A DNA stretch of 64,000 nt from Escherichia coli. Lineage in GTDB: Bacteria > Pseudomonadota > Gammaproteobacteria > Enterobacterales > Enterobacteriaceae. Positions within the stretch are counted from its first letter, which is position 1; every line of letters starts with the position of its first letter. The translations under genes and the position numbers were made by a program. Of this stretch, positions 7,810-18,649 are shown one piece after another. The notes beneath the pieces are model-generated. The model was given only the letters and a program-made list of their open reading frames with translations, was not told the origin of the DNA and did no database searches. The stretch lies in assembly GCF_003790525.1 (NCBI RefSeq), contig NZ_CP033635.1; one strand, given 5' to 3'.

Positions 7810-10486
7810 CGAACCCTTACGTCCCGACCCCGATCGTCTGCTGGAACAAACTGCCGCGCCGCATCGGGGGAAGCTGAAAGTTTTCTTCGGTGCCTGCGCA
7901 GGCGTCGGGAAGACCTGGGCGATGCTGGCAGAAGCCCAGCGACTGCGGGCGCAAGGGCTGGATATTGTGGTTGGCGTGGTAGAAACCCACGGGCGGAAAG
8001 ATACCGCCGCAATGCTGGAAGGGCTGGCTGTTCTGCCGTTAAAACGCCAGGCGTACCGTGGGCGGCACATCAGCGAGTTTGATCTCGATGCCGCCCTCGC
8101 CCGCCGTCCGGCACTGATCTTAATGGACGAACTGGCGCACAGTAATGCGCCAGGTTCTCGTCATCCCAAACGCTGGCAGGATATTGAAGAACTGCTGGAA
8201 GCTGGCATTGATGTTTTCACTACCGTCAACGTTCAGCATCTGGAAAGTCTGAATGATGTGGTCAGCGGCGTCACCGGAATTCAGGTACGGGAAACCGTGC
8301 CCGATCCTTTTTTTGATGCCGCCGACGACGTAGTACTGGTGGACTTGCCCCCGGACGATCTGCGCCAGCGACTGAAAGAAGGCAAAGTCTATATTGCCGG
8401 GCAGGCGGAGCGCGCCATTGAACATTTTTTTCGTAAAGGTAATCTGATCGCCCTGCGCGAACTGGCACTGCGCCGTACTGCCGATCGCGTTGATGAGCAA
8501 ATGCGCGCCTGGCGGGGGCATCCTGGCGAAGAGAAAGTCTGGCACACGCGCGACGCGATCCTTTTATGCATCGGGCATAACACCGGCAGCGAAAAACTGG
8601 TCCGCGCGGCGGCGCGGCTGGCGTCACGGCTGGGAAGCGTCTGGCACGCGGTGTATGTTGAAACCCCTGCCCTGCACCGCTTACCGGAGAAAAAACGTCG
8701 GGCAATTCTCAGCGCCTTACGTCTGGCGCAGGAGCTGGGCGCAGAGACGGCAACACTTTCTGATCCAGCGGAAGAGAAAGCGGTAGTGCGTTATGCCCGT
8801 GAACATAATCTCGGCAAGATTATTCTCGGTCGCCCAGCCTCGCGCCGCTGGTGGCGTCGGGAAACGTTTGCTGACCGACTGGCGCGAATCGCCCCCGATC
8901 TCGATCAGGTGCTGGTCGCGCTTGATGAACCACCCGCCCGCACGATAAACAACGCGCTGGATAGCCGCTCTTTTAAAGACAAGTGGCGGGTACAGATTCA
9001 GGGATGCGTGGTTGCCGCCGCGTTATGCGCCGTTATCACCTTAATTGCCATGCAGTGGCTGATGGCGTTTGATGCCGCCAACCTGGTGATGCTGTATCTG
9101 CTTGGCGTGGTGATGGTGGCGCTATTTTATGGACGCTGGCCTTCAGTGGTTGCCACCGTCATTAATGTGGTGAGTTTCGATCTCTTTTTTATCGCCCCAC
9201 GCGGCACGCTCGCCGTCTCTGATGTGCAATATCTACTGACCTTCGCGGTGATGTTAACCGTCGGGCTGGTGATCGGGAACCTTACTGCGGGCGTGCGTTA
9301 TCAGGCGCGGGTAGCCCGTTACCGCGAGCAACGCACACGGCACTTATATGAAATGTCGAAAGCTCTGGCTGTGGGCCGCAGTCCGCAGGACATCGCCGCC
9401 ACCAGCGAACAATTTATTGCCTCCACGTTTCATGCCCGCAGTCAGGTGCTGTTACCCGATGACAACGGTAAATTGCAGCCGTTAACACATCCGCAAGGAA
9501 TGACGCCGTGGGACGATGCCATCGCGCAGTGGAGTTTTGATAAAGGCCTGCCTGCGGGCGCGGGCACCGACACGTTACCCGGTGTACCGTACCAGATTTT
9601 GCCGCTAAAAAGCGGCGAGAAAACCTACGGACTGGTGGTGGTGGAACCGGGGAATCTGCGTCAATTGATGATCCCGGAACAGCAGCGCCTGCTGGAGACG
9701 TTTACGCTGTTAGTCGCCAATGCCCTTGAGCGGCTGACGCTGACCGCCAGCGAAGAACAGGCGCGGATGGCAAGCGAACGAGAACAGATCCGCAACGCCC
9801 TGCTGGCGGCACTTTCGCATGATTTACGCACGCCGCTTACGGTGCTGTTCGGTCAGGCAGAAATCTTAACGCTCGATCTGGCAAGCGAAGGATCGCCCCA
9901 CGCCCGCCAGGCCAGCGAGATTCGCCAGCATGTGCTGAACACGACCCGACTGGTGAATAATCTACTGGATATGGCGCGAATTCAGTCCGGCGGCTTTAAT
10001 TTGAAGAAAGAGTGGTTAACGCTGGAAGAAGTGGTCGGCAGCGCGCTGCAAATGCTGGAACCGGGTTTATCGTCGCCCATCAATCTTTCTCTGCCAGAAC
10101 CGCTGACCTTAATCCACGTTGACGGGCCACTGTTTGAACGGGTGCTGATTAATCTGCTGGAGAACGCGGTGAAATACGCGGGTGCGCAGGCCGAAATTGG
10201 TATCGATGCCCACGTTGAGGGCGAAAATCTACAACTGGATGTCTGGGATAATGGCCCCGGTCTTCCACCAGGCCAGGAGCAGACGATTTTCGATAAGTTT
10301 GCTCGTGGAAATAAAGAGTCGGCGGTGCCGGGGGTAGGGCTTGGGCTGGCAATTTGTCGGGCGATTGTGGATGTACACGGCGGCACCATTACCGCGTTCA
10401 ACCGACCGGAAGGTGGTGCCTGTTTTCGTGTTACACTTCCCCAGCAAACTGCCCCTGAACTTGAAGAATTTCATGAGGATATGTGA
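7802..10486 (+). CDS. kdpD: Sensor histidine kinase KdpD
   Basis: 894 aa from [13 protein letters not shown]; Walker-like [10 protein letters not shown]-domain, TM cluster, H-box [12 protein letters not shown]-binding G-boxes. Confidence 0.9.
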
Positions 10487-11160
10487 CAAACGTTCTGATT
10501 GTTGAAGATGAACAGGCTATTCGTCGCTTTCTGCGCACGGCGCTGGAGGGCGACGGGATGCGCGTCTTTGAGGCCGAAACGCTGCAACGCGGCTTGCTGG
10601 AAGCGGCAACCCGTAAGCCAGATTTGATTATTCTCGATCTCGGCCTGCCCGATGGTGATGGGATTGAGTTTATCCGCGACCTGCGCCAGTGGAGCGCGGT
10701 GCCGGTGATTGTGCTTTCCGCACGCAGCGAAGAGAGCGACAAAATCGCCGCACTGGATGCCGGAGCGGATGATTACCTGAGTAAGCCGTTTGGCATTGGC
10801 GAATTGCAGGCCCGTCTGCGCGTCGCTTTACGCCGCCACTCCGCCACCACCGCGCCCGATCCGCTGGTGAAATTTTCCGATGTGACCGTCGATTTAGCCG
10901 CCCGCGTGATTCACCGGGGTGAGGAAGAGGTGCATCTCACGCCGATTGAATTCCGCCTGCTGGCCGTGCTGCTCAACAACGCCGGAAAAGTGCTCACCCA
11001 GCGCCAGTTACTCAATCAGGTGTGGGGACCAAACGCGGTCGAACACAGTCATTATTTGCGTATTTATATGGGGCATCTGCGACAAAAACTGGAGCAAGAT
11101 CCCGCCCGCCCCCGCCATTTCATTACTGAAACCGGTATTGGGTATCGGTTTATGCTTTGA
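10483..11160 (+). CDS. kdpE: Response regulator KdpE (OmpR family)
   Basis: 225 aa; receiver domain DLIILDLGLPDGDG; winged-helix C-terminus; ATGA overlap with kdpD. Confidence 0.95.
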   Translation: MTNVLIVEDEQAIRRFLRTALEGDGMRVFEAETLQRGLLEAATRKPDLIILDLGLPDGDGIEFIRDLRQWSAVPVIVLSARSEESDKIAALDAGADDYLSKPFGIGELQARLRVALRRHSATTAPDPLVKFSDVTVDLAARVIHRGEEEVHLTPIEFRLLAVLLNNAGKVLTQRQLLNQVWGPNAVEHSHYLRIYMGHLRQKLEQDPARPRHFITETGIGYRFML

Positions 11161-11195
11161 ATATTAATTTTAATACATCCTGCCTTTTATTAATT

Positions 11196-11226
11196 AAAGC
11201 CGTAATAATAAATACGGCTTTTTATC
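11196..11226 (+). terminator. kdpE rho-independent terminator
   Basis: AGCCGTA-ataataaa-TACGGCT hairpin followed by TTTTTA. Confidence 0.65.
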
Positions 11227-11393
11227 TTAAACAACACACAAAAATAACAATTCAATATTTTATATTACTGAGTAAAAAGTTCATCATTAAATAAATTAAG
11301 ATTGATCATTTTTTATTGATCACCTTCACAGTTCAACAGTATTTCCTGGATAGAATACCTTCACCTTCATTCACATCAGGAAAGGTAAATTAA

Positions 11394-11498
11394 ATGGAAA
11401 ATAACAGCCGCACTATGCCCCATATAAGGCGGACAACTCATATTATGAAGTTTGCTCATCGCAATAGCTTCGACTTTCACTTCTTCAATGCCCGTTAG
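11394..11498 (+). CDS. speFL: SpeFL ornithine-sensing ribosome-arrest leader peptide (34 aa)
   Basis: ATG GAA AAT AAC AGC CGC... encodes MENNSRTMPHIRRTTHIMKFAHRNSFDFHFFNAR-stop, about 255 nt upstream of speF; below ORF-track size cutoff. Confidence 0.85.
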   Translation: MENNSRTMPHIRRTTHIMKFAHRNSFDFHFFNAR

Positions 11499-11755
11499 TC
11501 TACCGACTAAGGGCACTTCAGCGTACAGGTCTTCCTGACTCTCTGTATTACAGGCATATGCCTGTATTCCGCAGTGCTCATTCTCTGTTAACCCTTGTAT
11601 TATCAGCCACCGGACTGATAAGGGTTTCTGCATTCTGAAAAAAGCAAACTTCTGATTAATTTATCAGCGGGGTAACTTTGCTTTTTTTCCGGCACGATCG
11701 ATTTCTCATTCGAGAAATTGAGGACCTGCTATTACCAAAAATAAAGAGTTGGAAA

Positions 11756-13954
11756 ATGTCAAAATTAAAAATTGCGGTTAGTGATTCTTGCCCGGACTGT
11801 TTTACCACGCAGCGAGAATGTATCTATATTAATGAAAACAGTAATATCGATGTGGCGGCAATAGTTTTATCGCTCAACGATGTTACACGCGGAAAACTCG
11901 ATGAAATCGATGCCACGGGTTATGGCATCCCGGTATTTATTGCTACTGAAAATCAAGAACGTGTACCCGCAGAGTATTTGCCCCGTATTTCGGGTGTCTT
12001 TGAGAATTGCGAATCGCGACGAGAATTTTATGGTCGTCAGTTAGAAACCGCAGCCAGCCATTATGAAACTCAACTGCGCCCGCCCTTCTTCCGCGCACTG
12101 GTCGATTATGTCAATCAGGGTAACAGCGCGTTTAATTGCCCCGGTCATCAGGGCGGCGAATTTTTCCGTCGCCATCCGGCGGGGAATCAGTTTGTGGAAT
12201 ACTTTGGTGAGGCGCTGTTCCGTGCTGACTTGTGCAACGCGGATGTGGCAATGGGCGATCTGCTGATTCACGAAGGCGCGCCATGCATTGCACAGCAACA
12301 TGCGGCAAAAGTGTTTAATGCCGATAAAACATACTTCGTTCTAAATGGCACTTCATCTTCTAACAAAGTGGTTTTAAACGCCCTGTTAACACCGGGGGAT
12401 CTGGTGCTGTTTGACCGTAATAACCATAAATCTAATCACCACGGAGCGTTGCTACAGGCTGGCGCAACACCAGTTTATCTGGAAACCGCACGCAACCCGT
12501 ATGGCTTTATCGGTGGTATTGATGCCCACTGCTTCGAAGAAAATTACCTGCGCGAACTGATTACAGAAGTCGCACCGCAGCGGGCAAAAGAGGCGCGTCC
12601 TTTCCGCCTCGCCGTTATTCAGCTAGGCACTTACGACGGTACGATTTATAACGCCCGTCAGGTGGTGGATAAAATTGGTCATCTGTGTGACTACATCCTC
12701 TTTGACTCCGCATGGGTCGGCTATGAGCAGTTTATCCCGATGATGGCGGACTGTTCACCACTGTTGCTGGATCTTAATGAGAACGATCCGGGTATTCTGG
12801 TTACGCAATCTGTGCATAAACAGCAGGCTGGTTTTTCCCAGACTTCACAAATCCATAAAAAAGACAGCCATATCAAAGGGCAACAGCGTTATGTACCGCA
12901 CAAACGCATGAACAACGCCTTTATGATGCATGCCTCCACCAGCCCGTTCTATCCGCTGTTTGCCGCACTGGATATCAACGCCAAAATGCATGAAGGCGTC
13001 AGCGGTCGTAATATGTGGATGGATTGTGTGGTAAATGGCATTAATGCCCGCAAACTGATCCTCGATAACTGTCAGCATATTCGTCCATTCGTACCTGAAC
13101 TGGTGGATGGTAAACCCTGGCAGTCGTATGAAACAGCGCAAATTGCGGTTGATCTGCGCTTCTTCCAGTTTGTACCAGGTGAGCACTGGCATTCTTTTGA
13201 AGGCTATGCAGAGAATCAATACTTTGTCGATCCGTGCAAACTGTTGCTGACAACCCCAGGTATTGATGCACGTAACGGCGAATATGAAGCGTTCGGTGTA
13301 CCCGCGACGATTCTTGCTAACTTCCTGCGCGAAAATGGCGTAGTGCCGGAAAAATGCGATCTTAACTCCATCCTCTTTCTGCTGACTCCGGCAGAAGATA
13401 TGGCCAAACTTCAGCAACTTGCTGCTCTGCTGGTACGCTTCGAAAAACTGCTTGAGTCCGACGCGCCATTATCAGAAGTACTGCCTTCCATCTACAAACA
13501 GCATGAAGAGCGCTACACCGGTTATACCCTGCGTCAGTTGTGTCAGGAAATGCATGATTTGTATGCCCGTCACAACGTGAAACAACTGCAAAAAGAGATG
13601 TTTCGTAAGGAACACTTCCCACGTGTCAGCATGAATCCACAAGAAGCCAACTACGCCTATTTACGCGGTGAAGTGGAGCTGGTTCGTCTGCCGGATGCAG
13701 AAGGCCGTATCGCTGCAGAAGGTGCGCTTCCTTATCCTCCGGGAGTGCTGTGTGTTGTTCCGGGTGAAATCTGGGGTGGTGCTGTTCTGCGTTACTTCAG
13801 CGCTCTGGAAGAAGGGATCAACCTGCTGCCAGGTTTTGCACCGGAGCTTCAGGGTGTCTATATCGAAGAACATGATGGTCGTAAGCAAGTTTGGTGCTAT
13901 GTCATCAAGCCTCGTGGTGCGCAAAGCACCCTGCTGAAAGGGGAAAAATTATGA
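11756..13954 (+). CDS. speF: Inducible ornithine decarboxylase (PLP-dependent)
   Basis: 732 aa from MSKLKIAVSDS; Orn/Lys/Arg decarboxylase fold; ORF-track start 11678 is an extension; stop overlaps potE start. Confidence 0.95.
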   Translation: MSKLKIAVSDSCPDCFTTQRECIYINENSNIDVAAIVLSLNDVTRGKLDEIDATGYGIPVFIATENQERVPAEYLPRISGVFENCESRREFYGRQLETAASHYETQLRPPFFRALVDYVNQGNSAFNCPGHQGGEFFRRHPAGNQFVEYFGEALFRADLCNADVAMGDLLIHEGAPCIAQQHAAKVFNADKTYFVLNGTSSSNKVVLNALLTPGDLVLFDRNNHKSNHHGALLQAGATPVYLETARNPYGFIGGIDAHCFEENYLRELITEVAPQRAKEARPFRLAVIQLGTYDGTIYNARQVVDKIGHLCDYILFDSAWVGYEQFIPMMADCSPLLLDLNENDPGILVTQSVHKQQAGFSQTSQIHKKDSHIKGQQRYVPHKRMNNAFMMHASTSPFYPLFAALDINAKMHEGVSGRNMWMDCVVNGINARKLILDNCQHIRPFVPELVDGKPWQSYETAQIAVDLRFFQFVPGEHWHSFEGYAENQYFVDPCKLLLTTPGIDARNGEYEAFGVPATILANFLRENGVVPEKCDLNSILFLLTPAEDMAKLQQLAALLVRFEKLLESDAPLSEVLPSIYKQHEERYTGYTLRQLCQEMHDLYARHNVKQLQKEMFRKEHFPRVSMNPQEANYAYLRGEVELVRLPDAEGRIAAEGALPYPPGVLCVVPGEIWGGAVLRYFSALEEGINLLPGFAPELQGVYIEEHDGRKQVWCYVIKPRGAQSTLLKGEKL

Positions 13955-15270
13955 GTCAGGCTAAATCGAACAAGATGGGCGTCGTTCAGTTAACCATACT
14001 GACGATGGTCAACATGATGGGCTCCGGTATCATCATGCTGCCGACAAAGCTTGCCGAAGTTGGGACAATCTCAATTATCTCCTGGCTGGTGACAGCCGTA
14101 GGCTCAATGGCACTGGCGTGGGCATTCGCAAAATGCGGTATGTTCAGCCGTAAGGCAGGTGGTATGGGCGGTTATGCGGAGTATGCTTTCGGTAAATCCG
14201 GTAACTTTATGGCGAACTACACCTACGGTGTCTCGCTGCTGATTGCTAACGTCGCGATTGCTATTTCGGCGGTTGGTTACGGCACCGAACTGCTCGGCGC
14301 GAGTTTGTCGCCAGTGCAGATTGGTCTTGCGACCATCGGGGTGCTGTGGATTTGTACCGTGGCTAACTTCGGTGGTGCGCGCATTACCGGGCAAATCAGT
14401 AGCATTACTGTGTGGGGGGTAATCATTCCGGTCGTCGGTCTGTGCATTATCGGCTGGTTCTGGTTTAGCCCGACGCTGTACGCTAACTCATGGAACCCTC
14501 ATCATGTACCGTTCTTTAGCGCTGTAGGTTCCTCCATCGCCATGACGTTGTGGGCTTTCCTCGGTCTGGAGTCTGCCTGTGCCAACGCCGAAGTAGTGGA
14601 AAACCCGGAACGTAACGTGCCAATAGCAGTCCTTGGCGGTACGTTAGGTGCGGCAGTGATTTATATCGTCTCCACCAACGTGATTGCCGGGATTGTGCCC
14701 AATATGGAGCTGGCAAATTCAACGGCACCATTTGGCCTGGCCTTCGCACAGATGTTCACACCAGAAGTGGGTAAAGTCATTATGGCGCTGATGGTGATGT
14801 CCTGCTGCGGTTCACTGCTTGGCTGGCAGTTCACCATTGCCCAGGTGTTTAAATCTTCATCTGATGAAGGCTACTTCCCTAAAATTTTCTCCCGTGTAAC
14901 CAAAGTGGATGCACCGGTTCAGGGAATGTTGATCATTGTGATTATTCAGAGTGGATTGGCACTGATGACCATTAGCCCGTCACTGAACAGCCAGTTCAAC
15001 GTGCTGGTTAACCTGGCCGTGGTGACCAATATCATCCCGTATATTCTGTCGATGGCAGCATTAGTTATTATTCAGCAGGTCGCCAATGTGCCACCGTCAA
15101 AAGCGAAAGTAGCAAACTTTGTTGCCTTTGTTGGTGCGATGTACAGTTTCTATGCGCTGTACTCATCCGGGGAAGAAGCCATGCTGTACGGTTCCATCGT
15201 GACCTTCCTTGGTTGGACACTGTATGGTCTGGTATCTCCACGCTTTGAACTGAAAAATAAACACGGTTAA
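13951..15270 (+). CDS. potE: Putrescine:ornithine antiporter
   Basis: 439 aa from MSQAKSNKMGVVQLT; APC-family transporter; ATGA overlap with speF. Confidence 0.95.
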   Translation: MSQAKSNKMGVVQLTILTMVNMMGSGIIMLPTKLAEVGTISIISWLVTAVGSMALAWAFAKCGMFSRKAGGMGGYAEYAFGKSGNFMANYTYGVSLLIANVAIAISAVGYGTELLGASLSPVQIGLATIGVLWICTVANFGGARITGQISSITVWGVIIPVVGLCIIGWFWFSPTLYANSWNPHHVPFFSAVGSSIAMTLWAFLGLESACANAEVVENPERNVPIAVLGGTLGAAVIYIVSTNVIAGIVPNMELANSTAPFGLAFAQMFTPEVGKVIMALMVMSCCGSLLGWQFTIAQVFKSSSDEGYFPKIFSRVTKVDAPVQGMLIIVIIQSGLALMTISPSLNSQFNVLVNLAVVTNIIPYILSMAALVIIQQVANVPPSKAKVANFVAFVGAMYSFYALYSSGEEAMLYGSIVTFLGWTLYGLVSPRFELKNKHG

Positions 15271-15284
15271 AAAAAGCGAAATAA

Positions 15285-15318
15285 AAAAGGGCGATTGAAT
15301 GATCGCCCTTTCTGTTTG
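15285..15318 (+). terminator. potE rho-independent terminator
   Basis: GGGCGAT-tgaa-TGATCGCCC hairpin followed by TTTCTGTTTGTT. Confidence 0.65.
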
Positions 15319-15354
15319 TTGACAAAGAGTTCGTTATTTATGCCGCATCCGGCA

Positions 15355-15496
15355 GGTGTAGGGTCCAAACGCGGTCGAACACAGCAACTATTTGCGTAAT
15401 TATATGAGGCATTTGCGACAAAAACTGGAACAGGATCTCGTCCGCCCCGCCATTTCATTACTGAAACCGGTATTGGGTATCGGTTTATGCTTTGAA
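15355..15496 (+). repeat. Decayed duplicate of the 3' end of kdpE (direct repeat of 11019..11161, about 90% identity)
   Basis: Read by eye: ...CCAAACGCGGTCGAACACAG...GCGACAAAAACTGG...CCGCCATTTCATTACTGAAACCGGTATTGGGTATCGGTTTATGCTTTGAA present at both loci; copy B has an early stop in the kdpE frame; preceded by a partial REP (TGCCGCATCCGGCA). Confidence 0.85.
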
Positions 15497-15618
15497 AAAA
15501 GTGGCAATGTATGGATAAAGTCATTTTTTATTCAAATATAAGGAACTTAATATTTAAAAAATGTCCCATACAATGCCTCATCATAAATGACACCGTAGCA
15601 CACAAGGAGCAAGTAGCG

Positions 15619-16269
15619 ATGCGTGAAGTGAGTCAGTTAGTAAATACTGAAGATTCAGCCTGGCCAATAATCCAGAATTGGTTAAAAGAAGCCACAAACC
15701 ATGCCGAACTCTTACCGGTTAATAAAGATTTAGCCGAAACCGCACTTTATCAATTACAGGTTACAACAAAATCACCGATGGGTGCGCTTGTCTATGGCTC
15801 CGGAGGTCTGCTGATTGATAACGGTTGGTTACGCATAGCAGGCTCTGGTCACCCCCGGTTACCACGAGATCCAGCAAGTTGGACACAACGCCCTGAATTC
15901 GCAAGCGTGCGGGCTTTACCCATCGCCGATGATGTCGCAGGGGGAATTTTTGCTCTTAATGGTGGCGATCTTGGGGAAGATACTGGCTGCGTTTATTATT
16001 TTGCGCCAGATACGCTGAATTGGGAAAGTCTGGAGGTTGGATATTCTGAGTTTCTTCAGTGGGCATTATCCGGTGATTTAGATACCTTCTATGAAAATGT
16101 ACGCTGGCCGCAATGGCAAGAAGACGTAATAAAATTATCGGCAACGGAAGCCTTCACTTTCTACCCTTTCTTATGGGTACAATGTGAAGAAGCAAGAACA
16201 AGAAAAGTTATTTCGCTTACTGAACTCTGGGAAATGCAGTATCAAATGAAAGAAACAATCACGCAATAA
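15619..16269 (+). CDS. ybfG: Uncharacterized protein YbfG-like (possibly DUF2625)
   Basis: ORF 15511..16269; start chosen at ATG 15619 preceded by AAGGAG; start uncertain; AT-rich gene. Confidence 0.6.
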   Translation: MREVSQLVNTEDSAWPIIQNWLKEATNHAELLPVNKDLAETALYQLQVTTKSPMGALVYGSGGLLIDNGWLRIAGSGHPRLPRDPASWTQRPEFASVRALPIADDVAGGIFALNGGDLGEDTGCVYYFAPDTLNWESLEVGYSEFLQWALSGDLDTFYENVRWPQWQEDVIKLSATEAFTFYPFLWVQCEEARTRKVISLTELWEMQYQMKETITQ

Positions 16270-16309
16270 GACATGTTCAGGTCCGGGTTTCATTCCCGGA
16301 CTCGCTATT

Positions 16310-16804
16310 TTAATGTGTGTTTATCGCTTTCAATTCTTGCTGGCAATTTTCTGACTGACAGCGTCGCAACTCAATAATCCCTACATGCATCATCGAGCCA
16401 AAAAATCCGCTTTCGCTGACATAATCCTCATTAACTAGCGGTCGAGTGCCGGGCTTACCCTGGCAAATCCCCATAAAAAATGAGGTGTAGCATTGCCATT
16501 CAGGATTTAAACCGGTCTTTTCTTGTGCTGACATATCATGAAGATAAGTAAGTTCTTTTTCGTTCCCGCCTGACAACTGCCAGCGGCGGGTATTATCAGG
16601 TAAGTTATCGCCACGGCAATTTGTCTTACACCGGGAAGGCGCAATATTTACCGTAATGCTCCCCGTTAATCCTCTGGTTTTATCTTTAGGGGTCAGTAAC
16701 CAGTCACCAGCTAATGATGATTGTTCAGGTTGGGCGCATGCTGTCAGCAGTAGTGTGGCGGTAATTAATGCCACTCTGACGACCAGACTCCTTTTGGTCT
16801 TCAT
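16310..16804 (-). CDS. ybfP: Uncharacterized lipoprotein YbfP
   Basis: 164 aa from MKTKRSLVVRVALITATLLLTAC (signal peptide plus lipobox LTAC); ORF-track extension to 16855 is an upstream in-frame start. Confidence 0.8.
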   Translation of the reverse strand: MKTKRSLVVRVALITATLLLTACAQPEQSSLAGDWLLTPKDKTRGLTGSITVNIAPSRCKTNCRGDNLPDNTRRWQLSGGNEKELTYLHDMSAQEKTGLNPEWQCYTSFFMGICQGKPGTRPLVNEDYVSESGFFGSMMHVGIIELRRCQSENCQQELKAINTH

Positions 16805-16854
16805 TTTGAATTCCCTTGAGCTATTCAGTTTGTTGGCAAAGTGCTCGTTGTTCA

Positions 16855-16954
16855 TGCCGGATGCGGCGTGAACGTCTTATCCGGCCTACAAAATCGCGTA
16901 AATTCAATATATTGCACCATCTTCCCAAGCCTGATAAGCGTAGCGCATCAGGCA
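16855..16954. repeat. REP elements (BIME-like pair) between ybfP and pgm
   Basis: GCCGGATGCGGCGTGAACGTCTTATCCGGCCTAC and GCCTGATAAGCGTAGCGCATCAGGC, typical REP palindromes. Confidence 0.7.
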
Positions 16955-16963
16955 GTCATAAGT

Positions 16964-16998
16964 AAAAAAAGGCGATCTTCTGACCGCCCTTTTTCTTA
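16964..16998 (-). terminator. Probable pgm terminator
   Basis: GGCG...CGCC hairpin flanked by A-run/T-run immediately downstream of pgm stop. Confidence 0.45.
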
Positions 16999-17008
16999 TT
17001 AAATGTGT

Positions 17009-18649
17009 TTACGCGTTTTTCAGAACTTCGCTAACAATCTCAACCGCTTCTTTCTCAATCTGCTTGCGATGTTCTTCCCCGAGGAAGCTTTCGCAGTAGA
17101 TTTTGTATGCGTCTTCTGTGCCTGACGGACGCGCGGCGAACCAGCCGTTGTCAGTCATCACTTTCAGACCGCCAATAGAAGCACCATTACCCGGAGCCGC
17201 CGTCAGGCGTGCGGTGATCGGGTCACCTGCCAGGGTGCTGGAGCTCACCATTTCCGGAGACAGCTTAGACAGCGCCGCTTTTTGTGCGGAAGTCGCAGCT
17301 GCCTGCAAACGGTTATAGCTCGGCGCACCAAAGCGTTCTGCCAGTTCGTTGTAGTGTTCCTGCGGGTTCTTACCAGTGACAGCGGTGATTTCCGCCGCCA
17401 GCAGACACATGATGATGCCGTCTTTATCAGTCGACCACGGCGTGCCGTCGAAACGCAGGAAGGAAGCCCCTGCGCTCTCTTCGCCGCCAAAGCCGAAGCT
17501 GCCATCGAACAGACCATCAACAAACCATTTGAAACCTACCGGGACTTCTACCAGCTTACGGCCCAAGTCATTGACCACACGGTCGATCATCGCAGATGAA
17601 ACCAGCGTTTTACCGACAGCAACATCTTTGCCCCACTGCGGACGGTGCTGGAACAGGTAGTTGATCGCCACCGCCAGGTAGTGGTTCGGATTCATCAAAC
17701 CTGCCGGAGTGACGATACCGTGACGGTCATAATCCGGGTCGTTAGCAAACGCCAGATCGAACTTATCACGCAGTGCCAGCAGACCCGCCATCGCACACTC
17801 GGAGGAGCAGTCCATACGGATCGCACCGTCTTTATCGAGGTGCATAAAGCGGAAGGTTTGATCGACCTGATCGTTAACGATGGTCAGGTTGAGGTTGTAA
17901 TACTCGCCAATGCGCTTCCAGTATTCGATACCGGAACCGCCCAACGGATCAACGCCCAGCGTCAGGCCCGCTTTCTGAATCGCCGCCATATCAACGATAT
18001 CGGCCAGACCTTCCACAAACGGCTGCACCAGATCCTGCTCTTTCACATGACCGGATGCCATCGCTTCGTCGAGGGAGATACGCTTCACGCCTTTCAGGCC
18101 ATCGGCCAGCAGTGCGTTGGCCCTGTCTTCCACCACTTTGGTGACGTTGGTATCAGCCGGGCCACCATTTGGCGGGTTGTACTTGATACCACCATCTTCC
18201 GGCGGGTTATGGGACGGTGTAATCACGATACCGTCTGCCAGCGGGCCACCTTTTTTATTGTGAACCAGGATGGCATTGGAAACGGCAGGCGTTGGAGTGA
18301 AGCCATTGTTTTCCTGCACAATAACATCAACGCCGTTCGCTGCCAGCACTTCCAGAACGGAAATAAACGCAGGCTCGGACAGGGCGTGAGTATCTTTACC
18401 CACATAGCAAGGGCCAGTGATGCCGTTTTTCGCACGTTCTTCAGCAATTGCCTGAGCGATCGCCAGAATGTGCGGCTCGTTAAAGCTGTGGCGCGCTGCA
18501 CTGCCACGGTGACCGGAAGTACCGAATTTCACCGCGTGCTCCGCATTCCCTGCTTCTGGTTTCAGTACATAATATTGCGCCGTCAGTTGGGCGACGTTAA
18601 TCAAATCACTCTGTTGTGCAGGTTGGCCTGCACGATTGTGGATTGCCAT
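17009..18649 (-). CDS. pgm: Phosphoglucomutase
   Basis: 546 aa from [12 protein letters not shown]; active-site TPSHNP, GGEESAG; ORF-track start 18700 is an extension. Confidence 0.95.

Follow-up and report, generated by a model that had tools for sequence, protein, structure and literature searches.

In Campbell integration, as known for phage lambda and for suicide-plasmid cointegrates, direct repeats flank the inserted block and exact excision occurs between the repeats. Islands that target tRNA genes supply a replacement 3' end of the target gene. Homology-facilitated illegitimate recombination is known from naturally transforming Acinetobacter and Streptococcus pneumoniae, and REP elements serve as endpoints of duplications and deletions in enterobacteria. 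At the locus considered here, the closest described feature is the pseudogene ybfI (b4636) of E. coli K-12 MG1655, located in NC_000913.3 between potE and ybfG on the kdpE strand. A literature search for ybfI or for the kdpE-pgm locus gave nothing relevant.

We analyzed a 64,000-nucleotide stretch of E. coli DNA (the window) in which gene order at this locus is identical to that of K-12 and in which the tail of kdpE recurs downstream of potE. The recurring copy is the already catalogued pseudogene ybfI, and the repeat is thus not new. It has the same locus, orientation and neighbours (potE and ybfG) as K-12 ybfI, and shows the same homology to the C-terminal winged helix-turn-helix part of KdpE, its reading frame being broken as in K-12. 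The two sequences are approximately 92% identical. The window, which carries a haplotype of the SMS-3-5 type, differs from K-12 in that its copy has lost 1 bp, meets an early TAG and agrees fully with the kdpE of the same genome over 52 bp, whereas K-12 ybfI is interrupted by an internal stop, lacks the deletion and departs from its own kdpE at three positions within that 52-bp stretch.

The kdpE tail repeat and its surroundings

The response regulator gene kdpE is intact in the window (10483..11160, plus strand; 225-aa ORF, annotated as kdpE in identical or related E. coli records). Alignment and a repeat finder were used to delimit the last 143-145 nt of the gene, including the TGA and one further nucleotide (copy A, 11017..11161, plus strand), and its recurrence (copy B, or ybfI, 15353..15496, plus strand; name from NC_000913.3). 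The initial annotation had reported a 143-bp tail recurring at about 90% identity after the potE terminator, and MAFFT alignment of 11019-11161 with 15355-15496 confirmed this, with 130/143 columns identical (90.9%) and one 1-bp gap. The BLASTN match between the copies had an E value of about 2e-51. The repeat finder extended the repeat by 2 nt (11017-11161 and 15353-15496) and divided it into two parts, 96 nt at 88% identity followed by 52 nt at 100%. All 13 differences between the copies fall within the first 91 columns of the 143-column alignment, a clustering for which a uniform spread would give a chance of (91/143)^13, or about 0.003 by our own arithmetic, and over the final 52 bp copy B of the window does not differ from copy A. 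The longest uninterrupted match between the copies is 52 nt in SMS-3-5 and 29 nt in K-12. On the right, homology runs to one base past the kdpE stop (TGA A); on the left it breaks off sharply, at a REP-like remnant. The early stop previously noted in copy B was also found: in the kdpE frame it reads CAG GTG TAG, with the stop as third codon. A 1-bp deletion is present in addition, and PGAP labels the copy as 'frameshifted; incomplete; missing N-terminus'.

The 4.19 kb between the copies contains what the initial annotation had listed. A terminator scan placed the kdpE terminator hairpin at 11196..11221 (plus strand), and this is followed on the same strand by the leader peptide gene speFL (11394..11498; 34-aa ORF, annotated at the same position in L001), speF, encoding the inducible ornithine decarboxylase (11756..13954; GC 0.49), and potE, encoding the putrescine-ornithine antiporter (13951..15270; GC 0.51), the latter two assigned from ORF and annotation. 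The bidirectional terminator 3' of potE, designated T' (15284..15313), was located by terminator scan and by comparison of potE-pgm spacers. It is followed by u' and the REP remnant (15309..15353, plus strand), a left extension of a REP/BIME element whose end, ...GCCGCATCCGGCA, abuts copy B. To the right of copy B lie an AT-rich spacer (15497..15618, plus strand; GC 0.33) and the DUF2625 gene ybfG (15619..16269, plus strand), which is intact in the window and was assigned from its ORF, PF10946 homologs and annotation. A terminator hairpin found by the scan (16280..16302) separates ybfG from the convergent lipoprotein gene ybfP (16310..16804, minus strand; ORF and annotation). Between ybfP and the pgm terminator lie u and a BIME, that is a REP pair with an IHF-type linker (16823..16960, plus strand); the pgm-side terminator T (16967..16994) was recognized by its inverted repeat and by spacer comparison. 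The conserved right-hand neighbour is the phosphoglucomutase gene pgm (17009..18649, minus strand; ORF and annotation).

Distribution of the cassette and of the ybfI-ybfG-ybfP block

Population counts were made over 5,426 E. coli genomes, and cross-species comparison used the loci of 80 other Enterobacterales species, a set that does not include E. fergusonii, E. marmotae, E. ruysiae or Salmonella. Five arrangements of the kdpE-pgm locus (S, L, X, X+ and N) coexist in E. coli. In approximately 61% of E. coli genomes speFL-speF-potE occupies the kdpE|pgm site with no kdpE duplicate, and the same was observed in 25-29 of the 80 other species, where identity of the cassette proteins follows that of KdpE. 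Since the same site is occupied without a duplicate both across E. coli and in other species, the cassette is much older than the scar: the cassette is family-old and the scar species-level. The proposal that the scar marks arrival of the cassette is therefore not sustained, and a flanking direct repeat should be treated with caution, being no proof of the way in which the genes between the repeats were originally acquired.

Nor is the cassette the unit that varies in presence and absence among E. coli strains; this unit is copy B together with ybfG and ybfP. This ybfI-ybfG-ybfP block is found in approximately 34% of E. coli genomes. Cassette-free E. coli have kdpE-REPs-ybfP-pgm (244 genomes) or kdpE-REPs-pgm (about 46 genomes). 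In genomes lacking the cassette the gene after kdpE is pgm or ybfP, and not ybfG, with the exception of three rare genomes. The presence or absence of ybfG and ybfP in E. coli, and occasionally that of speF-potE, thus reflects recombination at one variable site.

The potE-T'-u' arrangement occurs in 1,825 genomes, equal to the number with copy B, and potE-T'-REP without copy B, which would be the cassette-side parental allele, was not found in the E. coli genomes. Neither a second kdpE tail nor a kdpE-ybfG arrangement was found among the 80 other species. Outside E. coli, identity to YbfG reaches only 50-57% in the nearest homologs whose genome context is available; two closer matches (86% and 75%) lie on metagenome contigs of about 1 kb with no context. 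YbfP hardly occurs outside E. coli, with 27 homologs found in total. Divergent YbfP matches were considered as a source of ybfP and rejected, as they proved to come from a type X E. coli and from an error-ridden assembly with frameshifts.

The three exceptional genomes (GF4-3, CUWW10 and KL53; 3/5,426) have full-length kdpE joined straight to the downstream flank of copy B and ybfG, and their kdpE tails are wholly copy-A-like. Compared with K-12, CUWW10 has an exact 4,335-bp deletion. As its DNA is 100% identical to that of K-12 as far as the kdpE stop, CUWW10 looks like a product of secondary excision, and hence derived, in place of a recipient that has survived. The kdpE tail of GF4-3, copy-A-like throughout, is compatible with the same explanation, and the three genomes taken together look secondary. 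The repeat still occasionally recombines, with loss of the cassette between the copies, and the part of the initial annotation that took the duplicate for a recombination scar around an excisable speFL-speF-potE segment agrees with these loop-outs.

Terminators, the junction and the decay of copy B

T' matches the E. albertii potE/pgm terminator at 19/20 nt, while by spacer comparison T is the allele common to cassette-free and short-form E. coli. As the left block ends in T' and the right block in T, the two halves of the locus carry different alleles of the same terminator. A short sequence of 15-17 nt is common to the left side of both hairpins. These data are compatible with a T'-T deletion by which the long form gave rise to short-form E. 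coli; they are explained equally well if T' was converted to T by sequence on the pgm side. Positions 15309-15353 and 16823-16867 are 82% identical, a score reached in 0/500 shuffles. This u'/u repeat was considered as a sign that both stacked units had ended in the same ybfP-upstream sequence, and was rejected as such: the u motif is a dispersed left extension of REPs, found beside them at unrelated loci. The whole of u and the BIME (16823-16960) aligns with the kdpE-pgm spacer of cassette-free genomes. At the left end of copy B, the REP remnant (...CCGGCA) meets GGTGT... at position -143 of kdpE with a 2-nt CA overlap. The novel microhomology junction of unrelated sequences that characterizes homology-facilitated illegitimate recombination is present, with an overlap of only 2 nt.

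Of 83 kdpE tails compared, that of E. coli is the closest relative of copy B, and 9/13 differences between copies B and A are private to copy B. The window-type and K-12-type copies have four private changes in common, followed by 5 and 7 lineage-specific ones. A6, T10, A32 and A45 are states private to copy B. Judged from its sequence, copy B is a decaying pseudogene which predates the split of the window-type and K-12-type lineages, since both haplotypes carry the four common private changes. It had been described as a diverged donor copy whose donor lineage a phylogeny might identify. With E. coli itself nearest among the 83 tails, no foreign donor lineage emerges, and the divergence is for the most part copy B's own. 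In K-12 copy B, the states G85, T94 and T103 are shared with cassette-free alleles (E. whittamii and the type X genome L093). This allele-class signal covers three sites at a rough post-hoc P of about 0.04 and is suggestive only, because the three states are absent from two E. coli of type N.

Origin of the arrangement

We think it likely that ybfI is the scar of a tandem joining of two alternative kdpE-pgm alleles, one having been added to the other instead of replacing it. One parent would have been kdpE-speFL-speF-potE-T'-REP element and the other kdpE-spacer-ybfG-ybfP-BIME-T-pgm. A single recombination would suffice, with the kdp operon or pgm as its homologous side and, as its other side, an illegitimate join that links the end of the REP element following T' to position -143 of the second kdpE. 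Linear DNA entering the cell and recombining by the homology-facilitated illegitimate mechanism would be the most likely route; the identical product would come from a circular Campbell intermediate. Either chromosome could have been recipient or donor, and a homologous join on either flank would leave no scar. Copy B would thereafter have decayed neutrally, and in the window lineage gene conversion has probably replaced its last 52 bp with the sequence of copy A. Against stacking, neither parental allele is extant in clean form, and the kdpE-ybfG genomes are not relic-like. A simple tandem duplication was rejected, as the units differ in content (speFL-speF-potE in the first, ybfG-ybfP in the second).

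The initial annotation had proposed a Campbell-type insertion. In its strict form, a circle with the 143-bp kdpE fragment and speFL-speF-potE-T'-REP would have entered a kdpE-ybfG-ybfP-pgm chromosome by one crossover in the kdpE tail. The direct repeats that bracket the cassette, the exact loop-out products and the kdpE-ybfG arrangement of three genomes all speak for it, and a circle is possible. It is, however, not needed, because linear DNA joined homologously at one end and illegitimately at the other would leave the same, indistinguishable product. The 4.2 kb between the repeats contains no replicon, origin, integrase, plasmid backbone gene or other circle-associated gene. The circle would itself need an illegitimate closure at the REP|kdpE junction and then a crossover within only 143 bp, one step more than the linear route, and neither CUWW10, identical to K-12 up to the kdpE stop, nor GF4-3, with its copy-A-like tail, looks like a surviving recipient. 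While the direct repeats and exact excision are as in Campbell integration, one repeat here is a truncated gene tail at an illegitimate junction, and the cassette is a long-standing chromosomal block and not a mobile element. We therefore consider the strict Campbell route improbable. The generic PGAP label 'winged helix-turn-helix domain-containing protein, missing N-terminus' would suit what is left of a paralogous second response-regulator gene, or of a duplicated kdpDE operon, mostly deleted later. Such an origin is very improbable given that at the DNA level copy B matches kdpE itself at 88-91% identity, with E. coli alleles the closest, that its homology runs from the REP junction to exactly 1 nt past the stop codon, and that no longer kdpE copy was found in the 5,426 E. 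coli genomes or the 80 other species. A genomic island integrated site-specifically into the kdpE 3' end, with attL/attR-like repeats and a replacement 3' end supplied, would share the geometry of islands whose insertion leaves a second copy of the target gene's 3' end. This is scarcely credible here: no integrase or excisionase lies in or beside the 4.2-kb segment, the repeats are 143 bp long and diverged with no short exact core, and in many genera this cassette stands at the site without a repeat.

The tandem joining of two alleles resembles homology-facilitated illegitimate recombination in its one-sided homologous anchor, its junction of very short microhomology and its addition of DNA in place of replacement. 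It differs in that it concerns E. coli and two alleles of one locus, and that we infer it from the product alone. It would account for the origin of the K-12 pseudogene ybfI and otherwise has little to offer except cleaner annotation and a neat case study. Somewhat more tentatively, kdpE|pgm might be a recombination hot spot at which ybfI records a rare, datable one-ended recombination, with the repeat governing loss of the cassette, whose decarboxylase and antiporter serve in acid stress, and lineages carrying the perfect 52-bp repeat (such as SMS-3-5) more prone to loop-out. With respect to known REP and BIME rearrangement endpoints, the illegitimate junction of ybfI coincides exactly with the end of a REP-type element, although its partner is unique coding sequence (kdpE -143) with no REP. 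In the cassette-free types ybfP is likewise flanked by REP pairs.

The kdpE 3'-end repeat and its relatives

The last 143 bp of kdpE (11019-11161, copy A) were aligned with the sequence following potE (15355-15496, copy B). As the initial annotation had claimed, the repeat is real, with 130/143 columns identical, a single 1-bp gap and a BLASTN E value of about 2e-51. A repeat finder placed it 2 bases longer (11017-11161 and 15353-15496) and divided it into 96 nt at 88% identity and 52 nt at 100%. All 13 differences lie within the first 91 columns, a clustering with P of about 0.003 by our own arithmetic if their spread were uniform. The perfect 52-bp block is specific to the window lineage, the K-12 copies differing at 3 positions there, and is most simply read as local gene conversion from copy A. 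Homology of copy B to kdpE starts abruptly at REP-like sequence and ends 1 base past the kdpE stop codon; in the kdpE frame the third codon is TAG, and there is also a 1-bp deletion. The 4.19 kb separating the copies contains, as first described, the kdpE terminator and the speFL-speF-potE cassette, followed by the terminator of potE and the remnant of a REP.

Copy B is an already catalogued pseudogene, recorded in the curated K-12 MG1655 entry as ybfI (b4636) between potE and ybfG and labeled by the NCBI pipeline as a pseudogene, [quoted passage not shown]. Literature searches on ybfI and the locus gave no paper discussing the origin of ybfI. The window is E. coli DNA, 100% identical to strain SMS-3-5 across 1.8 kb of the region and to AR_0013 across 281 bp. 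The neighboring ybfG (DUF2625), of 216 codons, is intact in the window (15619-16269) and in many strains; that of K-12 (NC_000913.3 715947-716597; L089 6520-7170) is a pseudogene with an internal stop.

Copy B had been taken for a diverged donor copy. Among 83 kdpE tails compared, its nearest relative is E. coli kdpE and no foreign donor lineage is visible. Four of the 13 differences from the window copy A correspond to ordinary polymorphisms of E. coli; the other 9 occur in copy B only. Private changes common to the window-type and K-12-type haplotypes number 4, with 5 and 7 being lineage-specific, the pattern of a neutrally decaying pseudogene predating the split of these lineages. Three states in K-12 copy B (G85, T94 and T103) are common to cassette-free alleles of E. 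whittamii and one E. coli with the cassette-free type X arrangement described below. As they are missing from two E. coli of the likewise cassette-free type N, this signal is only suggestive that copy B was formerly the tail of a cassette-free kdpE.

Age of the cassette and arrangements of the kdpE-pgm interval

A kdpE locus was present in 80 species representatives. In 25 of them speF-potE lies between kdpE and pgm, with 4 more on truncated contigs; the kdpE-pgm distance is below 400 bp in 30 and 400-1,500 bp in 12. The cassette occupies the same site in Escherichia, Citrobacter, Enterobacter, Kluyvera, Lelliottia, Cedecea, Atlantibacter and others, and Serratia, Pantoea, Dickeya and Yersinia are without it. 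SpeF and PotE identity declines roughly in parallel with KdpE identity, suggesting that the cassette is old, was passed on mostly by vertical descent and was lost repeatedly. Neither a further kdpE tail nor ybfG or ybfP was found at any of the 80 loci. The cassette is thus much older than the scar, and copy B is not the signature of its original insertion but at most the mark of a later event within Escherichia. In Pseudocitrobacter faecalis (L024 3251-5404) speF apparently lies between kdpE and pgm, and no potE was detected. Differing insertions in the kdpE (or potE)-pgm interval of other species, of about 9.7 kb in Klebsiella (L038, L046) and about 7.5 kb in L043 and L056, together with 0.5-1.1 kb inserted after potE (L017, L022, L026, L045), support the view that the interval is a hot spot for insertions in general.

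Arrangements were counted among 5,426 complete E. coli genomes. Type L, that of both the window and K-12, reads kdpE-cassette-T'-REP remnant-ybfI-spacer-ybfG-ybfP-BIME-T-pgm, where T' and T are the terminators after potE and beside pgm, and was present in 1,825-1,844 genomes (about 34%). Type S (kdpE-speFL-speF-potE-T-pgm) makes up the remainder, about 61%. Type X (kdpE-REP pair-ybfP-BIME-T-pgm), without cassette or ybfG, was found in 244 genomes, and type N (kdpE-BIME-T-pgm) in about 46, a figure inferred by subtracting from 290 the 244 type X genomes also admitted by the piece-joining rule. The variable block between most E. coli genomes is ybfI-ybfG-ybfP, not the cassette. Cassette-free genomes had been expected to carry ybfG directly after kdpE; they are instead of types X and N, and full-length kdpE joined to the downstream flank of copy B, then ybfG-ybfP-pgm, occurs in only 3 genomes (type X+).

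Two very different kdpE-speFL intergenic haplotypes exist in E. coli (window 11161-11393 versus L003, L090 and L091 after kdpE), both in long-form and short-form genomes; one is E. albertii-like, with an extra annotated 44-codon ORF overlapping speFL. YbfP (window ybfP 16310-16804) occurs almost exclusively in E. coli; 27 homologs were found in 5.8 billion proteins. The allele of one type X genome (L093 8001-8474) nevertheless has identities of only 67% (protein) and 87% (DNA), so ybfP is either evolving fast or decaying. Against that genome, the cassette-free species representative SCPM-O-B-8794 (L004), labeled E. coli, shows only about 95% DNA identity in kdpD and about 92% in kdpE, and could be from a cryptic clade of Escherichia.

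Terminator alleles and origin of the long form

The left half of type L ends in T' (GGGCGATTGAATGATCGCCC), matching the E. albertii potE/pgm terminator at 19/20 positions, and the right half in T (GGGCGATCTTCTGACCGCCC), the allele of E. coli types N, X and S; each half of the long form thus holds a different allele of the same terminator. The 44 nt after T' resemble the region upstream of ybfP. As the motif there is a conserved stretch extending REP/BIME elements on their left side at unrelated loci, all it shows is that T' used to be followed by a REP element. This motif of about 30 nt (TTGTTGRCAAAGTG..GTTGTTCATG; window 15309-15341 and 16823-16855, L098 and L099 700-745) lies directly left of REP elements at the ybfP, yhjG/yhjE and yiiF loci of E. 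coli, at a median of 3 places per genome, and seems to be an extension conserved in one REP/BIME subclass. The REP remnant (...CCGGCA) directly abuts GGTGT in the kdpE tail, the two overlapping by 2 nt, and the structure contains no other illegitimate junction. The order potE-T'-REP was found in 1,825 genomes, a number matching that of copy B carriers, so the cassette-side parental allele is now absent on its own in E. coli. Short-form E. coli may derive from the long form by T'-T deletion.

Type L most likely consists of two alternative versions of the interval stacked one after the other, [kdpE tail - cassette - T' - REP] followed by [kdpE tail - ybfG - ybfP - BIME - T]. A single recombination would be enough, with ordinary homology on one side and the illegitimate REP|kdpE(-143) join on the other; with an incoming linear fragment this would be homology-facilitated illegitimate recombination. 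The Campbell-type circle initially proposed would leave the same end product, and sequence alone cannot separate the two routes, but the circle requires one step more, since closure at the same junction must precede a crossover confined to 143 bp. The geometry of that proposal holds in part; its account of what the scar records, of the donor copy and of what follows kdpE in cassette-free genomes does not. A site-specific island at the kdpE 3' end is argued against by the lack of any integrase or replicon gene in the 4.2 kb between the copies. Copy B is an ordinary scar of recombination at a site that varies, and of limited general interest.

Excision and other losses of the cassette

Strain CUWW10 matches K-12 at 100% identity for 2,062 bp up to the kdpE stop and then continues into the copy B flank; exactly 4,335 bp have been lost, and the crossover lies in the final 19-nt run of identity. 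GF4-3 shares this architecture but on a different kdpE allele. Because their kdpE tails are wholly copy-A-like, both are more plausibly products of secondary excision than recipients that survived; the repeat still mediates excision. Other cassette losses occurred through IS1. In the short-form strain 2018-166 (L003 9834-12808), IS1A interrupts speF, which survives as two pseudogene fragments; here the cassette was inactivated independently. In MB10 (L085 6378-7306), IS1A replaces the stretch from mid-speFL to just past copy B, giving kdpE-speFL'-IS1-ybfG, and both cassette and ybfI were lost via the IS.
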